DNA from: Candidatus Eremiobacteria bacterium | Lineage (GTDB): Bacteria > Vulcanimicrobiota > Vulcanimicrobiia > Vulcanimicrobiales > Vulcanimicrobiaceae | Direction: 5' to 3' | NCBI GenBank assembly: GCA_963737065.1 | Contig: CAVTRC010000001.1 | Location: forward strand, 1,312,001-1,376,000 | Length of the DNA: 64,000 nt | In this document: piece by piece, positions 54,426 to 63,892 of the stretch | How positions within the stretch are numbered: the stretch's first letter is position 1 | Layout of the letters: every line of letters starts with the position of its first letter | Notes under the pieces: model-generated | Database searches by the model: none | What the model was told of the DNA's origin: nothing | The model's input: the letters and a program-made list of their open reading frames with translations, nothing else | Translations under genes and position numbers: made by a program

Positions 54426-55451
54426 TTACGCCTCCACGCGCCGCCACTGGATGACGGCAAGTGCGCTGTAGATGATGAACAGTCCGAATTCGACGGCCAG
54501 ACGGGGAACGAAGTCGGGCGGAGCGGTCAATTGACCAGCCGTGTTCTCGTTGATCGCGATGCCGTTCACATAGCTGAGCGGATCGATGCGCGAGAGAACC
54601 CAGAAGACGTTGTGCACGAGCTGACCGACGATCGAGTCGCCCCATGGAATCGCGCCGAAGACCGTAACGAGGATCGCGACCGGCCACGCGAAGCCGAGGA
54701 CCGCTCCGTATCCGCGCCTGAGCGATGCGGTCGATGCCGCGAGCAATCCGTACCACGCGAAGGGCACGGCGATTCCCATTAGGATCGCATTGGCGTTCAC
54801 GCCCGTAAAGTCTAAGCTCGGCATCTCGAACATCAGCTGACACAGCAAGAGCGCGACGATGGTCATTACGGAAGCCGCAATGATTCCAACGAGGTCCGCG
54901 GCGATTGCGCCGATGGCGAATGCTTCGCGCGAAACCGGTTTGGTTAGAGCGTACTCGAGGTGTCCGTCTGCTTCGCGGGCAAACGGCGCCGCGAGTACGG
55001 TGGCAACGAAAAGCGCGGCGAGATCCGCAAAGGCCATGTAGTAAAGGAACGGCACGCTTCCATTGGTATCGATCGTCGTAACGTGCATCTTTCCGGAACG
55101 CGTCTCGTTGATATGGACGCTTCCGATAACAGCCCGGTCTGCGTGCCCGCCTGTACGCGACGACGGCTCGGTGATGACGATGTGCCGGCCCGCACTCCCC
55201 ATGTTGTCGATCACGACCGTCGTATTATCAGATGGACTCTTAATCGTCGTGCGCTTCGTACCATCCGGCAGCACGCTCCGCGAAATCGTCGTACCCGGCT
55301 CCATCGTGACGTGCTTGATGAAGACGTCATCTGCGCTCAAATATCGATTGAACGAAATACGCAGGACGAGCACGATTAAAATGAACGCGCCGAGCACGAT
55401 AGCGACCACGCGCAGCGCGTTGCGCACACGCAGCCATTCAACGTAGCTCAT
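54426..55451 (-). CDS. ABC-2-type exporter permease with an extracytoplasmic loop
   Basis: E..G.LEYALTKPVSR motif; about six TM helices; ATGA coupling to the ATPase gene. Confidence 0.8.
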   Translation of the reverse strand: MSYVEWLRVRNALRVVAIVLGAFILIVLVLRISFNRYLSADDVFIKHVTMEPGTTISRSVLPDGTKRTTIKSPSDNTTVVIDNMGSAGRHIVITEPSSRTGGHADRAVIGSVHINETRSGKMHVTTIDTNGSVPFLYYMAFADLAALFVATVLAAPFAREADGHLEYALTKPVSREAFAIGAIAADLVGIIAASVMTIVALLLCQLMFEMPSLDFTGVNANAILMGIAVPFAWYGLLAASTASLRRGYGAVLGFAWPVAILVTVFGAIPWGDSIVGQLVHNVFWVLSRIDPLSYVNGIAINENTAGQLTAPPDFVPRLAVEFGLFIIYSALAVIQWRRVEA

Positions 55452-56359
55452 GAAGTCGCTCCCTCTACCACATCGGCGGTTGCCTCTGCGGGCGAGACCG
55501 CGTATAGGAAAATATCTTCTAAGTTGAGGTCGACGATGCGAACGCCCGTTGCGCCCATCGCCTCCAATTTGCGGACGAATTCGGGCGCGCCGTCGGTGGT
55601 AAGCAGACGCACGATCCGGCCGGTGCGATCGGTACGCGCGATGCGCGGATCGTTCGCCACACCGTTGAGCGCATAAGACTCATTGGGGAAGATCCCTTCG
55701 ACGATCTTGCGATCGGCTTTCAGATCATCGACCGCGCCTTCGAGCGCAAGATGACCTTTGTCGACTACCGCGATACGCTCTGCGGCGCGCTCGACTTGTC
55801 CGATTTGATGCGACGAGAAGATTACCGTTGCACCCCGCGCGGATTCGTTGATGATCATATTGAGCACGTGACGCTGATTGATCGGGTCGAGTCCGCTCGT
55901 CGGTTCATCGAGAATGAGGATGTCCGCTTCGCGCGCGATTGCGAGCGCGACCATCGTCGCGGTCTTCATGCCTTTCGAAAGCGCGCGCGCCTTCTTGCGC
56001 ATATCGATATCGAACTGCGCGAGAAGTTCGTTCGCGCGCTGCACCGAAAACTGCGTGTACGCGCGGCGCTGCATTTCGACGTGTTCCTTGACCGTCATCC
56101 AGTCGTACAGCACGGTCTTCTCGGGAACGTACGCGATCCGTTCGAACGTCGCCGGCTCAAGCGGTTTTCCGTTATACAAAACGGTTCCCGAGCTGGCGAA
56201 CGCAAGGCCCAGCATACACTTGAACGTCGTCGTTTTGCCGGCGCCGTTCGGACCGAGAAGGCCGAAGACGCAGCCCTCGGGGATCGCGACGGTGAGACCG
56301 TCGACCGCCGTGTACCGGCCGTATGTCTTGCGCAAGTTTTCAATTGAGATTGTACTCAT
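55448..56359 (-). CDS. ABC transporter ATP-binding protein (YtrB-like)
   Basis: GPNGAGKTT, LSKGM, LDEPTSGLDP and SSH motifs. Confidence 0.93.
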   Translation of the reverse strand: MSTISIENLRKTYGRYTAVDGLTVAIPEGCVFGLLGPNGAGKTTTFKCMLGLAFASSGTVLYNGKPLEPATFERIAYVPEKTVLYDWMTVKEHVEMQRRAYTQFSVQRANELLAQFDIDMRKKARALSKGMKTATMVALAIAREADILILDEPTSGLDPINQRHVLNMIINESARGATVIFSSHQIGQVERAAERIAVVDKGHLALEGAVDDLKADRKIVEGIFPNESYALNGVANDPRIARTDRTGRIVRLLTTDGAPEFVRKLEAMGATGVRIVDLNLEDIFLYAVSPAEATADVVEGATS

Positions 56360-56754
56360 TGTGCCTCCCTGAACCACCGGTCGATTGCGCCGTTGGCGAG
56401 CGATCGAACCGCTTCGGCATCGAGGCCGATCGATTTCGCTTCACGCACTGCCCCGTCGATTGCATCTCGCGCTACATCCGTCGCAGCGGCCTTCGTCGTA
56501 TCCTTGACGCCGTTGCTCTTCACGAAGGAGCCGCGTCCGGGCGACGTTTCGATGACGCCGTCGCGTTCGAGTTCGCGGTAGGCCTTCGCTACGGTGTTGG
56601 GATTGATGGTCAAATCGAGCGCGAGCTGCTTCACCGTGGGCAGTTGCTCGCCCGCTCCGAGAACCCCGATCGCCACCGAGCGCTTTACTTGCTCGATGAC
56701 TTGTAGATAGATCGGGACCCCGCTACGCGGATCGACCGTGAGTACGACGGGCAT
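56356..56754 (-). CDS. GntR-family regulator, YtrA subfamily
   Basis: PIYLQ, LPTVKQLA..L.INPNTVAKAY and GRGSFV motifs; short C-terminal domain; heads an ABC operon. Confidence 0.93.
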   Translation of the reverse strand: MPVVLTVDPRSGVPIYLQVIEQVKRSVAIGVLGAGEQLPTVKQLALDLTINPNTVAKAYRELERDGVIETSPGRGSFVKSNGVKDTTKAAATDVARDAIDGAVREAKSIGLDAEAVRSLANGAIDRWFREAQ

Positions 56755-56760
56755 TGCCGT

Positions 56761-56872
56761 TTAGAACTTCGGGCCCCAGCCTTGAAACAGCGGAGCGCTC
56801 ATCTGGGCGGGGATTCGAACGCGAGCTTCGCGAGCTTCGGTGTCTTCGCGGGCGATTGATGAACCGTGTCAT
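56761..56872 (-). CDS. Small FxGWGPK peptide, copy 1 (frameshifted, or expressed only as a 13-aa ORF)
   Basis: The intact ORF 56802..56761 reads MSAPLFQGWGPKF. From the SD-preceded ATG 56872 (AGAGGA), removing one A at about 56856 gives MTRFIIAREDTEAREARVRIPAQMSAPLFQGWGPKF. Confidence 0.45.
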
Positions 56873-56915
56873 GTCGATTGTCCTCTAGCTTTCCGTACCG
56901 TACTGCTCTCATGTC

Positions 56916-56933
56916 GTACTAGTACATTAGTAC
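56916..56933. promoter_or_regulatory. YtrA-type operator
   Basis: Inverted repeat GTACTA-N6-TAGTAC upstream of the GntR operon, resembling YtrA-family boxes. Confidence 0.7.
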
Positions 56934-57067
56934 AATAGCGCAGCAGTACGCCACCGTCAATAGGTCGCCAGAAAATTTTCCGAACCGCCGTACGCGTCCA
57001 CGCGCGCGCCCGGCTCGATTCGCCCTAGCGCCGACGTAGTGCTGGAGACAAGCCCGCTTCCCACAAA

Positions 57068-57277
57068 GGCAGTTCTTGTGGTGCGCGCTCGGTTGCGCGA
57101 GCTACCCCGGTATGGAAATGTGCAGCTTTTTCGGGCTGGCCCGGACGGCCATTTCAAAACTTCGTTCTCCCGAAAAAGTGCGCAAGCAGAAAACCGGCAC
57201 GATGCCGGTTTTCGGGCGGTTTCCATACCGGGGTAGCTCGCGCGACCGAACGCGCACCACAAGAACTGCCGGCGCCG
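57068..57277. mobile_element. MITE-like or structured element with 51-bp inverted repeats
   Basis: 57068-57118 and 57220-57270 are reverse complements at 49/51 positions; two internal hairpins; CACAAA direct repeat at 57062-67 and 57278-83. Confidence 0.6.
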
Positions 57278-57429
57278 CACAAACTCAGGGGTTTTCACGC
57301 ATACATCGCGCCGTGGGCGTTTCGTACCATGAGCACACCAGAGATCTGCTTGCATAAACAACCCCGAACTGCTCGTTTGGAACGCCGATCTATCACTGCG
57401 GGCCACGTCGCTATCGGCTCGGCTGCGCG

Positions 57430-57764
57430 GCATCGCAGGCATCGGCACGAGCGCGCCGGCGCTGGATGTGAGCGATCTCTGGGCACGATCGTGCGAAGAC
57501 GGCGGAAGCCGCCGGATCGTACGGCCATGACGAGTCTGCGATCATCGCATTCGGTGCGTCGGTACGCTCGTCGACATCACCAAGTTTAAAAGAACGTGAA
57601 GCGCAACCGCGCAGCGTCTTGCACCGTCGATCACGTTTACGCGCGCGACGGGCGCATGTGCGCGGTGGTGTTTCTCGATATCGGCAATTGCGACGTCGAA
57701 GGAATTGCTCGCAGTTGCGGATCGTAAATTGTACGCGGTGAAGCAGAACGGGGGCGCGGCGTAA
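57430..57764 (+). pseudogene. Decayed GGDEF (diguanylate cyclase) gene remnant
   Basis: AGSYGHDESAII from 57511 (degenerate RYGGDEF) and ELLAVADRKLYAVKQNG from 57702 lie in different frames; 5' boundary approximate. Confidence 0.55.
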
Positions 57765-57783
57765 AGCTCGCGAACGCCTCCTC

Positions 57784-59256
57784 GTGGCCAGCCGGATCTT
57801 CGTCGGACCGTCGTCCCTTCGCCATCCTCGGGAGCGCCTCGCGCTTCTCGGAACGCTGCTATGGGCGCTGCCGATCGCCGGCATCATCGGGCTGGTCGTT
57901 CACGAACGGGTCGATCTCCCGAAGGTCGCGCTTTTCATTGTGATTGCGATGCTGTATGTGACGCTCGCCCGCGGCCGCCTGATCGGCTCGTCGGTAATGA
58001 TTCACGAGGCACAATATCCGCGCGTGTTCTCCATCGTCAAACGCGCGTGCGCGGCGCTCGAGATTCCGATGCCGCTGATCTTCGTGCGCGAAGACTTATA
58101 CGTCCCGGTTGCGGCGCTCGGCTTCGGCGAACCGTATTCGCTCGTGCTTTCGAGCAGCTACATCGAACAATTCGAAGACGACGAGCTGGCGTTCATGATT
58201 GGACGGCAACTCGGGCACATTGCCGCCGGCCACACGCGCTTCATCTCGCTGCTCAGCGTTAATGGAAACGAAAATCCGATCGTCGCGCTCATCTTCGGTC
58301 CGTGGCTGCGCATTTGCGAGCTCACGTGCGACAAAGCCGGCCTGCTGGTGTGTGGTTCGCTCGACGCCGCCGCGCGCGCCATTGCCATCGCATCGTTCCA
58401 TCATTTCGGGCGCCGCGTCGACATGGATCAATTTGCCGAGCAGGCGCGCGAAATCGCGGGTGACAGCGTTTTGCGCTGGGGCGAGTGGCTGGGCGCCGAA
58501 CCGTACGCAACGCGCCGCATCGCCGATATGCGCGCCTTCTCGCACACGCACGCGTATCAGACGCTCGAAGAATGGTTTTTGCGTGAAGCGTATGAGCCGC
58601 CGCCCGCGCTTCCGGCTCCGGGGCGCGTGACGGTTTCGCGCGCGGATTGCGCGGGGTGGTGGCGGCGCTTCATCGCGACGTTCATCGATCTCGTCGTCGT
58701 TACGTCGCTGATTACCGCAATTACCGGCACCGACGACTCGGGAACCCGCATTGTCAACGAAATCAACGTCGACAAGCACGGGAAAACGACGCATAGCGCG
58801 ACCGTCGTGCCCGGCGACACGTCCCAGTCAACGGACGAGGATACCGGCACGACACAATTCGGCTGGCTTCGCGTAGGGCTGGGCGGTATTCACGTGGCCC
58901 AAGGCACTCCGCTCGCTGCGGTTTCAAACCTCTTCGGAAAAAACTTATGGTATTGGGCGGCAGGGGTCTACTTTGTGCTTCTCGTCGGACTTTCGGGACA
59001 AACGTTCGGGATGATGATTACCGGCTTGCGTGTGGTCACGACGGATTTCCGGAAACCCGGAATCACGCTTTCGCTGTGGCGCTATATTCTCGGCTTTGTG
59101 CTAATCCCTATCATCATTCTGCTCAGCTTTATTCAGCATCGCGTGATGTTACACGATCGCTGGAGCGGAACGCGATTGATCACGACCGAGCGCGCGATGG
59201 CGCGCGCAGCGAGCACGGCCGCCGCAACGGCGGCGCCCGCTAGCGTGCCGGCGTAG
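57784..59256 (+). CDS. M48-peptidase-like domain fused to an RDD membrane domain
   Basis: DDELAFMIGRQLGHI (HExxH degenerate), ELTCDKAG; RDD motifs AGWWRRFIA..ID, GQTFG...GLRVV and LHDRWSGT. Confidence 0.8.
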   Translation: MASRIFVGPSSLRHPRERLALLGTLLWALPIAGIIGLVVHERVDLPKVALFIVIAMLYVTLARGRLIGSSVMIHEAQYPRVFSIVKRACAALEIPMPLIFVREDLYVPVAALGFGEPYSLVLSSSYIEQFEDDELAFMIGRQLGHIAAGHTRFISLLSVNGNENPIVALIFGPWLRICELTCDKAGLLVCGSLDAAARAIAIASFHHFGRRVDMDQFAEQAREIAGDSVLRWGEWLGAEPYATRRIADMRAFSHTHAYQTLEEWFLREAYEPPPALPAPGRVTVSRADCAGWWRRFIATFIDLVVVTSLITAITGTDDSGTRIVNEINVDKHGKTTHSATVVPGDTSQSTDEDTGTTQFGWLRVGLGGIHVAQGTPLAAVSNLFGKNLWYWAAGVYFVLLVGLSGQTFGMMITGLRVVTTDFRKPGITLSLWRYILGFVLIPIIILLSFIQHRVMLHDRWSGTRLITTERAMARAASTAAATAAPASVPA

Positions 59257-59692
59257 ATTCCAGCGCGAGCGCGTTGCTCAAGCGGCTGACGTAATTGTTC
59301 GCACCGATGACGGCAAGGATTTCAATCAATTCGCCATCGCTATAGTGTTCGCGCAGTTGTGCGAGTACCGTGGGCGGCAATGCGCGCGGTTCGCGCGTAA
59401 GCGATACGGTGGCGGACAGCGCAGCACGCTCGGCGTCCGAAAACCGCTCGCTGTGCGCAAAGTCGCCTAACGCCGCGAGCGTCTCCGTTTCGATTCCGAG
59501 CTTGAGGGCGATCTCTTCGTGCACGCAGGTGCAGTAGTCGCACGCGTTGAGCCAGCCAACCATCAACGCGATCAGCTGCTTCGTACGAGCCGGCACGGTA
59601 CCGTCGTCATCGATCGCGCGTAGATGCGCCGCAAGCGTCCGCGCGAGTTGCGGACGCGACGCAATCGCGGAGAACAGCCCGTCGTCCGGCAT
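59240..59692 (-). CDS. Carboxymuconolactone decarboxylase / AhpD-like protein
   Basis: NACDYCTCVH CxxC motif and FSDAERAAL; start at ATG 59692. Confidence 0.85.
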   Translation of the reverse strand: MPDDGLFSAIASRPQLARTLAAHLRAIDDDGTVPARTKQLIALMVGWLNACDYCTCVHEEIALKLGIETETLAALGDFAHSERFSDAERAALSATVSLTREPRALPPTVLAQLREHYSDGELIEILAVIGANNYVSRLSNALALESTPAR

Positions 59693-59705
59693 TACCGAGG
59701 GGCCC

Positions 59706-61163
59706 TTATGCCGACTCTTGCGCCAGTTGACGAAATTCCGCGTCGTCGCGAAGGCTGTCAAAACGCGCGTCGTGGATGATCGCCATCCACGTTCCGTGCG
59801 CGTGCATGCGACGCAGCAGCGCAAAGGCAACGCTTCGGTCGCCGACTGCGGCGGCCGCAATGGCGAGATCGGCCGGATCGACGTCGCGGGCGTGCGCGCG
59901 CGCATATGCAAGCTCCGTGCGGGCTTCGGAGTACCGGTGCGCGATCGCGTACGCGTGCGCGAGTAAGGCAGAGCCTTCCGCGTGACAGTAGCTGCTCGAC
60001 GCTGCGTATTGCTTGAACGCCTCGATCGCGCGCGTGAGGTTTCCTTCGGCTTCGTACGCTTCGCCGATCGTCGTCAGCGCATCAGTCCGCTGCGGCGAGA
60101 GTTCGAGTGCCTGCTGTGAGTACGTGATCGCGTCGTGATAGCGGCGATCGTAGTACGCTGTCGATCCGAGCCATGCCGTCGTTGCAACGCTCAGCGGATC
60201 GAGATCAGCCGCCCGCTTCAACTGTGCAAATCCTTCGCGCAATTTTCCTCCACCCACGAGCGCAACGCCGTACCACTCGCGCGCGGGTCCGTATCCGGGG
60301 TCGAGCGCAATCGCGCGCTGCAGTTCGGCCATCGCGTCCGGCATATGTTTCTCGTTAAGCGCAATCAGTCCGAGTGCGGCGTGCGCTTCGGCCGAATTCG
60401 GATCGAGCGACAACGCCTTGTCCGCATATCCGCGCGCACGCGCGAAATAGACGCCTGGCGTTTGCGAGCCGTAGCGGTAATCGCCCATCGTCGCGTTCGC
60501 GTCGGCGAGCGCCGCGTATCCTTGCGCGCTCCTCGGATCGCTGTCCACGACCTGCGCGAAATACGTGAGGCTCTTCTCGACGCCGTCGCGCGTGCGCAGA
60601 TTCCAATAATAGCGGCCGATCTGATAGAGACGCGCGCCGTTGTCCGACAGCGCTTCAACGGTGGTTCCCCGGTGCGCAACGACACCGGCCAGCAACACAA
60701 ACGATGCGGCAATCACGGCGAGTCCTGACGCGGCTGCCGCGATCCAACGTGCCTTCGCGACGCGCGGCTCTCGCTGCTTCACGGCGGTCGCCGGAATGGA
60801 GAGGGCCGGAATCTCATCCGGAATCATCGGCGCTTCCGCGAGCGCTGCACGCGCAGCGCGCCGGACGGGCGCGGTAAACCGGTAGCCGCGCCGCGGCACC
60901 GTTTCTATTGCATCGGTGCCCCAGCGCGCGCGAAGCATCTTGCGCAGGACGTAGATGTTCTGCGCGAGATTTGCTTCTTCGACGAATCCTTCGGGCCAGA
61001 TACGGTCGAGCAACATTGCCTTGGCAAGAACTTCGCCGGGATGCTCGACGAGCGCGAGCAGCGTTTCGACGACTTTCGGACCGAGTGCAACCGGCTCACC
61101 CTCGTGCACGAGCAATAATCGCTCCACGTCGAGGTGGAAAGGACCAAATTCATAGACGTCCAT
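59706..61163 (-). CDS. ToxR/CadC-like regulator: winged helix, TM segment, TPR repeats
   Basis: YEFGPF...VEEANLAQNIYVLRK...ETVPRRGYRF; one TM segment; repeated A..LDP TPR units. Confidence 0.88.
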   Translation of the reverse strand: MDVYEFGPFHLDVERLLLVHEGEPVALGPKVVETLLALVEHPGEVLAKAMLLDRIWPEGFVEEANLAQNIYVLRKMLRARWGTDAIETVPRRGYRFTAPVRRAARAALAEAPMIPDEIPALSIPATAVKQREPRVAKARWIAAAASGLAVIAASFVLLAGVVAHRGTTVEALSDNGARLYQIGRYYWNLRTRDGVEKSLTYFAQVVDSDPRSAQGYAALADANATMGDYRYGSQTPGVYFARARGYADKALSLDPNSAEAHAALGLIALNEKHMPDAMAELQRAIALDPGYGPAREWYGVALVGGGKLREGFAQLKRAADLDPLSVATTAWLGSTAYYDRRYHDAITYSQQALELSPQRTDALTTIGEAYEAEGNLTRAIEAFKQYAASSSYCHAEGSALLAHAYAIAHRYSEARTELAYARAHARDVDPADLAIAAAAVGDRSVAFALLRRMHAHGTWMAIIHDARFDSLRDDAEFRQLAQESA

Positions 61164-61237
61164 AACCGTACTGCCTTCGAAGAATAATTGATTCCGTTTT
61201 GAGGACGGTCGATATCCCTACTCGCATGCTTATAGCG

Positions 61238-63430
61238 ATGACATCCCGCCTCACGTTCTTATCTACGATTGTACTGCTTGCGGGTTTCGCCATGGCGGCT
61301 TCTCCCGCGGCGGCTGCCGTGTCCGACTCATTTTCGTTCCCGGTGGCCAAGGCTCCCCATGCGATGCCGCTCGATCCGTCGTTGTCGGACCCGGCGTGGC
61401 AAGCAGGCAAAGTACCGGGCGCCGGCGGCTGGGAAAATGTGACGACGCGCAGTTCGGCGCCATCAGCGACCGTCTACATGCTTTACGACGATACGTACGT
61501 CTACGTCGGTTTCGTCGTCCCACAAGACGGTGTCCCGATCACTGCAACGCAGACCACCGATTACGTCGGCTTTGGAACAGACGACTTCGTCGGCGTTGGA
61601 CTCGACCCGAGCGGCGCCGGCTCGCAGGCCTACTTCTTCGAGACGACGCCGCGCGGCGTACGTTACCAGCAAGCGCTCGAGAACGTGCGGTATCGCCCGG
61701 AATGGGACGCGGCGGCGAAGATCGAGAAGGGCGGATGGCGCGCGGTGATGCGAATCCCGCTGCGCGACATGCGAGTGCGTTCCGGACCCTCGCAGACCTG
61801 GCGTATCGGCTTCTTTCGTCAGATTGCCGCACGCGGCGAGCACCTTACATGGGCGTTCGACCCGCTGATGCAAGACTCGGGTTCGGGCAACTGGCCGACC
61901 TTCAACGACCTCCGCTACTGGCCCGCGGCTACGTCCATTGCACTTTCCGGCAAGGCCATACGCCCGAGGCCGCGGCTCGAACTCTTTGCGCTCTCGAGCA
62001 CGGGCGGAGATCGCGACGTGTACCAGCAAGGCAACGGAGAGTTCTTGTCAGAGCAGACGCGTCCGCTTGGGATGGATTTCAGCTATCCCGTGACGCCGAC
62101 CGCGAATCTCGTCGGTACGCTGGCGCCGGATTTTTCGAACGTCGAAACCGACCAGCAGACGATCGCGCCGCAAGAGTTTCCACGCCAGCTCGTCGAGTAC
62201 CGGCCGTTCTTCGCTCAGGGCGCGCAGTATCTCAATCCGAATCCCAACGGGGTTTCGAACTTTAATTCGCCGTCGAACGAACTGTTTTACACGCCGAGCG
62301 TCGGTCCGTTCGATCGTGGGCTGAAGTTCGAAGGCACACAAGGGCTGCAGAGTTTCGGGCTACTGACGTTTCGTGGATACAACGAATCCACGAACGACAC
62401 GTTCGACGATCAAGCTTTTGGATACAAGCACGCGCTGCAGGATCAAACGTTCCAATACTGGACGGACGGCGTGCTCGCACATCACAGCATGTCGGGTAAT
62501 GACTCCACGATCGAATACGGCGCGAAAGGACGCGATCTTCACACGGGCTTCGTCTGGATGGTCGATCACGCCGACGAGAGCGGCTCGTGGGTTCCCGGCG
62601 GCAGCGCGCACAGCACGAACGGCTACTTCGACGTTCATCAACACAATTATGAGGTGAATCTGGGTTACGTCGACATCACGCCGTATTACAATCCGATCGA
62701 CGGGTACACGACGAACTCCGACATTCGCGGGCCACAGATGTTCGTCAGCTTCCTTGGTGCAACGCCGTACGTCAAAAACTGGAGCATTTTCGTTTACGGC
62801 GATCGCTTCAAGGATCAGAGCGGCGCCGTTCACGAGTCGGATGCCGGCGCGTTCCTGCAAGCGGTGTTCAAAAACGGCCTTTCGATCAACGGCTTGGGGC
62901 CGACCGTGAGTATCCTGCGCTCCTATAACGGAAATGCATTTACCGGCTACCCGCTCTATCAGAACGGCATCGACACCCCGTACAATCTTTTCGGCGTGCC
63001 GATCGGCTACCGGGACGGTACGCCGACGCCGGTCGACGTCAGCGCAAATTGGGGAAGCTTCGGCGGTTACTGGGAGCACCTGTATACGTCGTCCACGTCG
63101 CGTCCGCTCGGTTCGCGGTTTACGTTGGGCCTTGAATACGACGGGACGTACCAGCGCAGCCTTACGACGGGCGACGTCAACTCGCAGTTCCTGCGGCGCG
63201 TGTCGATCGGATATAACATTTCGCCGCTCAGCAATTTCACGGTAGGTTTGCGTAGCATTAACGGCACGGGCGGTTTTGCTATACCCGGACTCAACCTCGC
63301 CGCCGCATATCACCTGCAGATGCGCTCAGGGGATCTTTATATCAACTACGGTTCGCCGTCGGCTATCGCAACGTTAAATCGCTTAATCGTAAAGTACGTG
63401 TTCCGCGCAGGCGGCGATGCGGGGACGTAG
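61238..63430 (+). CDS. Secreted/outer-membrane CBM9-like plus DUF5916-like protein
   Basis: Signal peptide; LYDDTYVYVGF and MRIPL (CBM9-like); PDFSNVETD and EYRPFF (DUF5916-like); aromatic beta-strand-rich C-terminus ending LIVKYVF. Confidence 0.7.
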   Translation: MTSRLTFLSTIVLLAGFAMAASPAAAAVSDSFSFPVAKAPHAMPLDPSLSDPAWQAGKVPGAGGWENVTTRSSAPSATVYMLYDDTYVYVGFVVPQDGVPITATQTTDYVGFGTDDFVGVGLDPSGAGSQAYFFETTPRGVRYQQALENVRYRPEWDAAAKIEKGGWRAVMRIPLRDMRVRSGPSQTWRIGFFRQIAARGEHLTWAFDPLMQDSGSGNWPTFNDLRYWPAATSIALSGKAIRPRPRLELFALSSTGGDRDVYQQGNGEFLSEQTRPLGMDFSYPVTPTANLVGTLAPDFSNVETDQQTIAPQEFPRQLVEYRPFFAQGAQYLNPNPNGVSNFNSPSNELFYTPSVGPFDRGLKFEGTQGLQSFGLLTFRGYNESTNDTFDDQAFGYKHALQDQTFQYWTDGVLAHHSMSGNDSTIEYGAKGRDLHTGFVWMVDHADESGSWVPGGSAHSTNGYFDVHQHNYEVNLGYVDITPYYNPIDGYTTNSDIRGPQMFVSFLGATPYVKNWSIFVYGDRFKDQSGAVHESDAGAFLQAVFKNGLSINGLGPTVSILRSYNGNAFTGYPLYQNGIDTPYNLFGVPIGYRDGTPTPVDVSANWGSFGGYWEHLYTSSTSRPLGSRFTLGLEYDGTYQRSLTTGDVNSQFLRRVSIGYNISPLSNFTVGLRSINGTGGFAIPGLNLAAAYHLQMRSGDLYINYGSPSAIATLNRLIVKYVFRAGGDAGT

Positions 63431-63571
63431 TCACAGAGGTTCCTTTATAACAGTTGTCTTCACGAACGCGCAAAAGTCGTGTGAAACAAAAATCATATGT
63501 GGGCAGTAATTCGCGGTGTAAAGTGACACACGGACAACGCAATGCCCGTTGTTCACACGGAAGGAACAGTC

Positions 63572-63733
63572 GTGAATACGCCTATGGAAAAGCCCAATGA
63601 TGTCGCTCAGGAGGACGAACAGCCGGTGAATTCGTTCACGCGCGTGATCGCAGTCGCACCGAGCAGTGCATCCTTCAGCGGTTGGGGACCCAAAGTGATC
63701 GGATTGACGTCCTCGCTGACACGCTGGAATTAA
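63572..63733 (+). CDS. Small FxGWGPK peptide, copy 2 (53 aa)
   Basis: GTG 63572 with SD GAAGGA; MNTPMEKPNDVAQEDEQPVNSFTRVIAVAPSSASFSGWGPKVIGLTSSLTRWN. Confidence 0.55.
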   Translation: MNTPMEKPNDVAQEDEQPVNSFTRVIAVAPSSASFSGWGPKVIGLTSSLTRWN

Positions 63734-63839
63734 AGACCAATTAAAGTTTCATCCACGTGCACGGTTGCGCGTGAGATGGACGGGGGTGAAGTTGTCCTCC
63801 ACCAACGGCACCCCCGAGGAACCTCGTAGAGTGCAGCAA

Positions 63840-63875
63840 GTAAAAATGGACGGCAAGGCGGCCGTCCATTTTTAC
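63840..63875. terminator. Bidirectional intrinsic terminator
   Basis: GTAAAAATGGACGGC-aaggcg-GCCGTCCATTTTTAC, a perfect 15-bp inverted repeat. Confidence 0.85.
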
Positions 63876-63892
63876 GTCTAACGCGCTTCGCG

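Follow-up and report, generated by a model that had tools for sequence, protein, structure and literature searches.

Two short open reading frames (ORFs) on opposite strands of a Candidatus Eremiobacteria genome have translations that share the motif F-x-G-W-G-P-K, and they raise the question of whether they encode members of a protein family and, if so, what proteins so small might do. Both lie in the 64,000-nt stretch of DNA analysed here (the window; the whole genome is 3.08 Mb), where an initial annotation, made from the letters alone, had taken them for homologues, one in a minus-strand frame (copy A) and the other at 63572..63733 on the plus strand (copy B); the motif is indeed at both places. 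We find that they belong to a real family of small coding ORFs, far above chance in its occurrence and previously undescribed, for which we propose the name GWGP peptides. This family originated within one class of Eremiobacterota, in which almost every genome carries it, and its shared core is the octapeptide F-x-G-W-G-P-[KR]-[LIVFM]. As to function, we tentatively favour the reading that these are trans-acting, disordered small proteins attached to signalling modules, which share a C-terminal docking motif and stay inside the cell.

Occurrence and distribution of the family

In a six-frame translation of the genome the pattern F.GWGP[KR] has three matches, each of which ends a short ORF; copies A and B lie in the window and copy C outside it.

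56761..56872, minus strand: peptide A, with an ATG at 56872 behind AGAGGA, motif codons at 56767..56787 and a TAA stop at 56761..56763
63572..63733, plus strand: peptide B, an ORF of 53 amino acids (aa) with a GTG start 6 nt after GGAAGGA
C1:1003120..1003227, minus strand: copy C, outside the window

A family profile run against the genome at E<=50 found no copy beyond A, B and C. Among 41 related genomes (the unpublished genomes G036 and G014 included), the DNA pattern TTYNNNGGNTGGGGNCCNMRN matched 94 times and its reversed control 3 times; 40 of the 41 had at least one match to the pattern. The initial annotation had proposed looking for the motif in small ORFs at the syntenic places of relatives, and it is found there: in each of the six congeners an interval of about 7 kb separates A from B, which are again on opposite strands. 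A survey of the phylum sampled 301 genomes (ten of them unpublished; G000 was not counted). The window's class comprises three families in that sample, in which 201/206, 3/3 and 22/22 genomes had pattern matches, a total of 226/231, with 1-7 copies per genome in the class. In the other 18 families of the phylum 15/69 genomes matched, and control matches were about as many.

We retrieved 92 of the 94 places (two in G014 were omitted), and the context counts given below refer to the 87 hits with K or R at position 7, which include the window's two and the copy in locus L001. In 82 cases the hit is an ORF of 30-59 aa that has a start codon, and a Shine-Dalgarno (SD)-like word precedes nearly all of these. 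One of the others has no start codon (L021) and one is the copy A of the window, which is frameshifted. In two hits, both from one genus (L014 and L015), the motif forms the C terminus of a larger protein of unknown family, and in one (L023) a 161-aa TonB_C protein has it in its N-terminal tail, on the cytoplasmic side and directly ahead of a hydrophobic segment.

L014:856-1527, L015:460-1227 and L016:1494-2162: larger motif-ending protein in family f2, 223-256 aa, ending in FQGWGPRLG, FQGWGPRLS and FQGWGPHLD
L023:1140-1622, minus strand: TonB_C protein of genome G020, with STFHGWGPKL in an Arg-rich N-terminal tail, then VALALAASAFGSL and an AYA-A site

The larger protein of L014, L015 and L016 matches no Pfam family and has only four database homologues, all unnamed; L062 may be a fourth case, in another frame.

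Database searches extended the family without giving it a name. At E<=0.01 a collection of 5.8 billion proteins yielded 109 members, all unnamed or called 'hypothetical protein', with source labels that include Candidatus Eremiobacteraeota, Baltobacteraceae and Aquilonibacter. A library of 1.84 billion representatives gave 123 matches, all unnamed, of which 113 were small; those that are not repeat proteins measure 34-112 aa. About ten long proteins among the 123 were rejected: they are repeat proteins that contain hydrophobic-F-x-G-W-x-G words and have no relation to the family. Scanned against Pfam and NCBIfam, 79 members had isolated chance-level hits only (best E 0.0074), a profile search of PDB gave no hits at E<=10, a protein atlas look-up for peptide B gave no usable match, and a search for longer, fused relatives found none at E<=1, which is weak evidence. 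Full-text literature searches on the motif strings returned unrelated papers only, and a search on small proteins or peptides of Eremiobacterota returned nothing relevant among the papers listed.

Sequence conservation and physical properties

The octapeptide is strongly conserved: 107/109 of the database proteins have F.GWGP[KR], and 93/102 small representatives, a set that overlaps the first, have it in full. In all 84 peptides K/R is followed by L, I, V, F or M, and Arg stands at the K/R position in 41. Some copies at the related loci have S, H or N at that position, and further database variants have A, T or S there, Gln or Val for Pro, or Ala as the last residue. The GntR-linked copies of genomes G012, G016 and G020, reached by way of the GntR gene rather than the motif, have Val for Pro. 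No substitution of F, G, W or G occurs in any of the members found without the motif as a key, namely these three GntR-upstream variants and two variant hits. Among 107 proteins the tail after K/R is one residue long in 74, two in 9, three in 4, six in 1 and 11-12 in 19, and the stop codon may be TAA, TAG or TGA.

Upstream of the octapeptide, position -11 is Val in 36/84 peptides and position -12 is Arg in 20/84, and because these residues precede the octapeptide the homologous module is about 20 residues long. By sequence, then, the peptides are bipartite, with a type-specific N-terminal part and a shared C-terminal module in which a weak R-V-x-hydrophobic element lies about 11 residues before the octapeptide. 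Of the features that the initial annotation had listed as common to A and B, FxGWGPK and RV hold across the family, but A(R/Q)ED does not.

The annotation's view that this is conservation of protein, and not a DNA repeat, is upheld by two observations: third codon positions of the motif vary freely across the 94 pattern matches, and the ratio of non-synonymous to synonymous differences (pN/pS) of the octapeptide within the genus is 0-0.09, at a pS of 0.31-0.52. Over whole ORFs the corresponding rate ratio (dN/dS) within the genus is 0.14 for A (the six intact orthologues), 0.24 for B (seven sequences, from all seven genomes including G000) and 0.17 for C (seven sequences), with 0.08 for the GntR gene. 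The N-terminal parts are constrained as well (pN/pS 0.27-0.39), and the peak of conservation is in the last eight codons. The lack of any curated-library match, the 94 pattern matches against 3 and the dN/dS of 0.14-0.24 together agree with the earlier impression of a small-peptide family that had gone unrecognized.

That annotation also described an acidic, leader-like half, which does not generalize: the net charge of the 84 peptides has a median of +2 and a range of -4 to +9. Their median grand average of hydropathy is -0.48, and none has a membrane-like hydrophobic segment, taken as a 15-residue window with a Kyte-Doolittle hydropathy of at least 1.6. An AlphaFold2 model of peptide B, from an alignment of 26 rows, has a pLDDT of 58 and no secondary structure. 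The peptides are thus predicted to be intrinsically disordered and soluble.

It may be asked at this point whether the octapeptide is simply a C-terminal anchor at the membrane interface, into which Phe, Trp and the last hydrophobic residue would insert while Lys or Arg snorkels, so that small proteins and one larger protein would be drawn to the membrane's inner face with no specific protein partner. Its location at the extreme C terminus of most members (a one-residue tail in 74 of the 107 database proteins), its place directly ahead of the membrane helix in L023 and the prevalence of membrane-linked modules among the neighbours would fit such a role. However, membrane anchors usually tolerate many substitutions, and here F, G, W and G are invariant even in the members found without the motif key; two Gly residues and a Pro speak against an amphipathic helix, and the summed interfacial hydrophobicity of the nine residues is modest by rough estimate, not computation. 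We consider an anchor of this kind improbable.

Copy A and the GntR/ABC operon

Copy A precedes the genes of a regulator and of an ATP-binding cassette (ABC) transporter.

56356..56754, minus strand: GntR-family repressor, YtrA-like, 132 aa with a short C-terminal part (PF00392, E 3e-14)
55448..56377, minus strand: ABC transporter ATPase (PF00005, E 2.7e-25)
54426..55451, minus strand: operon membrane protein, a presumed ABC-2-type permease, 341 aa, no Pfam match
56916..56960, minus strand: promoter-like site (TTGACG, 17 nt, TATTGT) that overlaps GTACTA/TAGTAC palindromes

Peptide A reads ...RVRIPAQMSAPLFQGWGPKF* and is the first cistron of the operon; since the start of the repressor gene, an ATG at 56754, is 6 nt behind its stop, A would be made together with the repressor. 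By eye, the 341-aa protein has a first hydrophobic segment, a long loop and several further hydrophobic segments. The GTACTAATGTACTAGTAC palindromes at 56916..56933 (minus strand) overlap the -10 region of the A/GntR promoter and are conserved in the genus; these palindromes, GTACTAGTAC, are probably the operator of the YtrA-type GntR repressor. The only other place in the genome with an exact copy of the 10-mer palindrome lies inside 23S rRNA (C2:414306), and B and C are not preceded by one.

The reading frame that the initial annotation gave for A, 56761..56855, is present but is not intact in this genome. The motif frame runs for 35 codons from stop to stop, and its sole ATG, GTG or TTG is a Met codon 13 residues from the end, which leaves no usable start. 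In all six congeners the orthologue is intact, with 36-37 aa beginning MTRFINRP or MTRIINRP. Alignment of the DNA with these six places the real start at the ATG at 56872, in the neighbouring frame, and reveals one extra base near 56849 (CGCCCGCGAAGAC in the window, CGyCC-sraaGAy in the congeners); this 1-nt insertion breaks the frame of A. The extra base may be genuine or may stem from the assembly; among public sequencing runs, none contained more than 8% of the words of this region. If it is real, repressor expression in this strain could be disturbed. The shifted frame continues to 56723, 31 nt inside the GntR gene.

The arrangement seen at A is that of 28/87 copies (type A), which lie directly upstream of a GntR gene of 130-141 aa that is followed by the ABC ATPase and the membrane protein; four more GntR-linked copies (L003 and L084-L086) have a variant motif. 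A complex prediction of peptide A with two GntR copies scored 0.00, in a run without controls, and counts neither for nor against binding.

In all 27 type-A pairs the GntR start is 2-20 nt past the peptide stop, so that any GntR SD must fall within the last codons of the peptide. Such spacing invites the view that these are first cistrons acting in cis, the translation of the small ORF, possibly with pausing at GWGP-K/R, setting re-initiation on the GntR or toastrack gene and the released peptide having no role. The type C stop, which often overlaps the next start (see below), and the peak of conservation in the last eight codons point the same way, and known arrest motifs commonly contain Trp, Gly and Pro. 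In their short ORFs directly upstream of a gene, and in conserved last residues that include Trp, Gly and Pro, the GWGP peptides do resemble the arrest and leader peptides SecM, TnaC, MifM, the Erm leaders and ApdA/ApdP. They differ in that many members have nothing downstream (at least 26/87, B included, lack a co-directional downstream gene), the GntR-linked orthologues of three genomes have Val in place of Pro, and the tail after K/R is of 1, 2-4 or 11-12 residues before a stop codon that itself varies. They differ further in that RNAalifold, run on 26 type-A junctions, revealed no coupled structure (five pairs at -1.5 kcal/mol, none of them compensatory) and that the whole peptide, with its N-terminal part, is under selection. 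The nothing-downstream copies, the Pro-to-Val variants, the variable tail and the lack of a coupled structure contradict a purely cis leader or arrest role, which we think distinctly unlikely, and the suggestion of a ribosome-arrest peptide in the initial annotation finds little support; a contribution in cis in types A and C is possible.

Among described cases the closest is YtrG, encoded first in the Bacillus subtilis ytrGABCDEF operon. It is reportedly a functional part of that operon and is described as a monotopic transmembrane protein whose function was long unknown (PMC13729164). As far as that description goes, the likeness is that of a small protein encoded first in an operon with a YtrA-type GntR repressor and ABC subunits. 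The GWGP peptides differ from YtrG, compared by description only, in having no hydrophobic segment in any of the 84 and in being predicted to be disordered; they also have paralogues outside the GntR operon.

Copy B and its structured RNA

Copy B differs from copy A in what lies on either side of it.

63431..63571, plus strand: conserved non-coding region upstream of B, with an inverted repeat TTCACGAA..TTCGTGTGAA and a hairpin in the 5' untranslated region
63731..63886, plus strand: structured RNA element of three hairpins, the last a terminator hairpin with a T-run

Peptide B ends in ...SFSGWGPKVIGLTSSLTRWN, with the motif FSGWGPKV followed by an 11-residue tail (12 after Lys) that ends in WN, and has orthologues in all six congeners. 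Twelve of the 87 copies are of this type, with a CBM9/DUF5916 gene upstream, a convergent aldo-keto reductase gene downstream and a tail ending in WN or FN; the DUF5916 gene precedes type B in 9 of the 11 related B loci. The region upstream of B has 80% mean column identity across seven congeners, with long invariant runs, and a second repeat, TTCAC..GTGAA, surrounds the SD and GTG start and could pair across both. The word GTAGAGTG from this upstream region occurs again in the 3' RNA element.

The 150 nt after the stop of B are more conserved than the B ORF itself. Across five genera the first hairpin of the element is closed by UUUCAUC/GAUGAA and the second has a covarying stem and an invariant loop, GUCCUCCACC; the element also has an invariant ACCUCGUAGAGUGCAGCAA stretch and the terminator, whose loop outside the genus is again CUCCACC. 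Compensatory changes occur in 13 of the 23 predicted pairs. A covariance model has exactly one match per genome in 13 of the 41 genomes, two of which were not used to build it; every match is 35-65 nt after a type-B motif, so the element follows the type-B ORF in 13/13 cases (the related loci include L026, L032, L034, L036, L038, L041, L043, L048, L064 and L065). Rfam has no match to the element at E<=1. Its CCUCCACC loop is anti-Shine-Dalgarno-like in sequence.

Seven contigs from a single soil metatranscriptome run, which come from relatives and are mostly 80-95% alike, fall on 63472..63802, and one of them spans 63683..63797, that is, the end of the ORF together with the RNA element; this shows presence only, as DNA carry-over is possible. 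A duplexfold scan of the B RNA against about 4500 start regions had a mean of -45 kcal/mol and is uninformative, because it allows long bulged duplexes.

B, apparently a separate unit, may be a dual-function small RNA (sRNA), since its ORF is paired one to one with a conserved structured RNA: the RNA would be transcribed independently, with the peptide as its coding part and a conserved structured domain as its 3' half. Dual-function sRNAs are known from SgrS/SgrT, RNAIII/delta-haemolysin and SR1/SR1P. B is like these in joining a small ORF to a structured RNA with C-rich loops and its own terminator, in a compact unit with a conserved upstream region. It differs from them in showing no homology (Rfam has no match), and its one-transcript state is only hinted at, by the contig at 63683..63797.

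Copy C and other gene contexts

Copy C represents a third arrangement, found in 12/87 copies (type C), in which the peptide gene lies between a divergent ECF sigma/anti-sigma pair and an operon of toastrack (DUF4097) and DUF6249 genes; in the genome of the window it precedes the toastrack/DUF6249 operon beside an ECF sigma factor gene. The type C stop often overlaps the next start, as TGATG or TAATG. Types A and C together make up 40/87 copies that are upstream of, and co-directional with, the next gene. Nine other copies adjoin genes for proteins of 767-899 aa that combine a helix-turn-helix (HTH) of the XRE family with a STAND NTPase and tetratricopeptide repeats (TPR), and the remaining 26 have varied neighbours, among them STAS, SARP and GGDEF proteins, an M56/BlaR1-like protease, MsrA, a bestrophin-like protein, pyridoxal phosphate enzymes and SNF2. 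The at least 26 of 87 copies without a co-directional downstream gene have a convergent gene or a terminator there instead.

Neighbouring families were scanned through 117 representatives, 40 from recurrent clusters and 77 from the other 111 clusters; the 34 omitted were mostly ORFs under about 130 aa. Three neighbours are single cases.

L083:3213-6020, minus strand: BlaR1-type M56 peptidase fused to pentapeptide repeats, in genome G016
L080:3475-4677, plus strand: YcaO protein in genome G022, two genes downstream
L050:1626-3722, plus strand: prolyl oligopeptidase in genome G005, two genes downstream

The last two bear on another suggestion of the initial annotation, a precursor of a ribosomally synthesized and post-translationally modified peptide (RiPP). 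In the form considered here, the product could also be a cofactor, and the modification would be, for example, a Trp-Lys cross-link of the kind known from streptide and darobactin, made by an enzyme encoded elsewhere in the genome. Small ORFs in several copies per genome, with a conserved core in which Lys follows Trp by three residues, would suit such a precursor, as would the YcaO gene and the prolyl oligopeptidase; but these two are single cases in 87, the Lys is often Arg (41/84) and sometimes Ser, His, Asn, Thr or Ala, and none of the 117 scanned representatives is a radical S-adenosylmethionine (radical-SAM) enzyme, a LanM, a cytochrome P450, an ATP-grasp enzyme or a prenyltransferase. 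A RiPP-like precursor is, in our judgement, very improbable.

The locus between A and B brings in a further candidate role.

57784..59256, plus strand: membrane protein with a peptidase M48 domain and RDD, divergent from A
59706..61163, minus strand: ToxR-like regulator with an OmpR-type winged helix, one predicted membrane helix and TPR repeats
61199..63430, plus strand: 743-aa CBM9-like/DUF5916 protein, upstream of B

The membrane helix of the ToxR-like regulator is at about residue 140-160 in orthologues, and its gene is divergent from the DUF5916 gene ahead of B. The M48-RDD gene is the divergent neighbour of type A in ten related loci as well as in the window, all within family f1. The A-B interval, 57784..63430, is a conserved cluster in family f1 and comprises the genes for M48-RDD, a CMD-family protein, the OmpR-type/membrane-helix/TPR regulator and CBM9/DUF5916; this cluster plus the ABC operon looks like one envelope-related module.

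A module of this composition raises the possibility, already named in the initial annotation, that the peptide is a signal. Leaderless precursors would be recognized through the C-terminal motif, trimmed by the M48 protease, exported by the co-encoded ABC transporter and sensed by TPR regulators, a route we think unlikely; the sensors would be ToxR-like proteins with an extracytoplasmic TPR domain and cytoplasmic XRE-STAND-TPR proteins. Such a route would resemble those of yeast a-factor (for which Ste24 is the M48 protease and Ste6 the ABC exporter), ComX and the SHP/ComS peptides of RRNPP systems. The GWGP peptides share with them short hydrophilic precursors without a signal peptide, a C-terminal functional part with Trp (here invariant), and an ABC transporter, an M48-family protease and TPR regulators nearby. 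Type A shares its operon with the ABC ATPase and membrane protein in 28/87 copies, the M48-RDD gene recurs beside it, an OmpR-type/TPR regulator with one membrane helix lies inside the A-B cluster, nine copies adjoin XRE-STAND-TPR genes, and a gene for a family-5 solute-binding protein is upstream of type A in four loci of family f3 (L009, L054, L056 and L060). Against this, known pheromones diverge between strains, whereas the presumed mature part here is nearly invariant over the whole class and not strain-specific. The motif also ends a 224-aa protein and, in the membrane-anchored TonB_C protein, lies on the cytoplasmic side, genome G010 has a copy but no GntR/ABC orthologue, and the M48 neighbour is confined to family f1. 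The peptides have neither Cys nor a CAAX box, and no prenyltransferase and no polyprenyl synthase was found among the neighbours scanned. RRNPP receptors are HTH plus TPR proteins of about 300-450 aa, unlike the TPR neighbours here, which are STAND NTPases of 767-899 aa or membrane-anchored OmpR-type proteins.

Discussion

The evidence taken together points to small proteins that carry a recognition motif. A strongly conserved octapeptide on type-specific, disordered peptides, its recurrence at the end of a larger protein and next to a membrane helix, the tight spacing to regulator genes and the predominance of regulators among the neighbours all argue for a modular C-terminal recognition motif on small proteins acting in trans. 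Action in trans rather than in cis is favoured by the copies, at least 26 of the 87, that are followed by a convergent gene or a terminator, by the conserved upstream region and terminator that B has of its own, and by the occurrence of the motif at the end of a 223-256-aa protein and, once, ahead of a TonB_C membrane helix. We infer from this that the peptides would act as small co-regulators of signal-transduction modules, namely the YtrA-type GntR/ABC operon, the ECF-sigma/toastrack system, the XRE-STAND-TPR regulators and the ToxR-like TPR regulators; the type-specific N-terminal part would give specificity for the module, and the octapeptide would dock onto one shared and probably membrane-proximal partner.

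Several points weigh against this proposal. Docking motifs are usually more degenerate than this octapeptide. In types A and C the closeness of the downstream start is equally compatible with a role in cis. G010, a genome that is 97% complete in one contig, has a toastrack-type copy and no GntR orthologue at E<=1e-15; because the copy is kept there without that gene, the GntR/ABC proteins are not a universal partner. Gene calls at the related loci are heuristic (they use a filter on GC content at third codon positions), and the neighbour counts are drawn from related genomes and are not independent events.

A more ambitious version, which we regard as rather unlikely, is that several stress or signalling regulons (those of ECF sigma, ToxR-like TPR, STAND-TPR and YtrA regulators) each make an octapeptide protein as a common currency that converges on one membrane receptor or enzyme, with B serving in addition as a base-pairing sRNA through its anti-Shine-Dalgarno-like loops. 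If true, this would be a new kind of regulatory network, built on a shared peptide tag.

No part of bacterial genomes is less well annotated than their small proteins, and Eremiobacterota is a widespread soil phylum known mostly from metagenomes and with, to our knowledge, almost no experimental genetics. The signal input of YtrA-type operons is debated even in B. subtilis, and type A adds to such GntR/ABC operons a second small first-cistron protein, one that appears unrelated to YtrG as the latter is described. We know of no sRNA described in this phylum; type B and the RNA that follows it form a candidate of the dual-function kind. A peptide of eight residues can be synthesized, so that binding of the octapeptide is directly testable; near-universal, present in multiple copies and invariant, it is a defining molecular feature of the class and offers a handle on its regulatory circuits.

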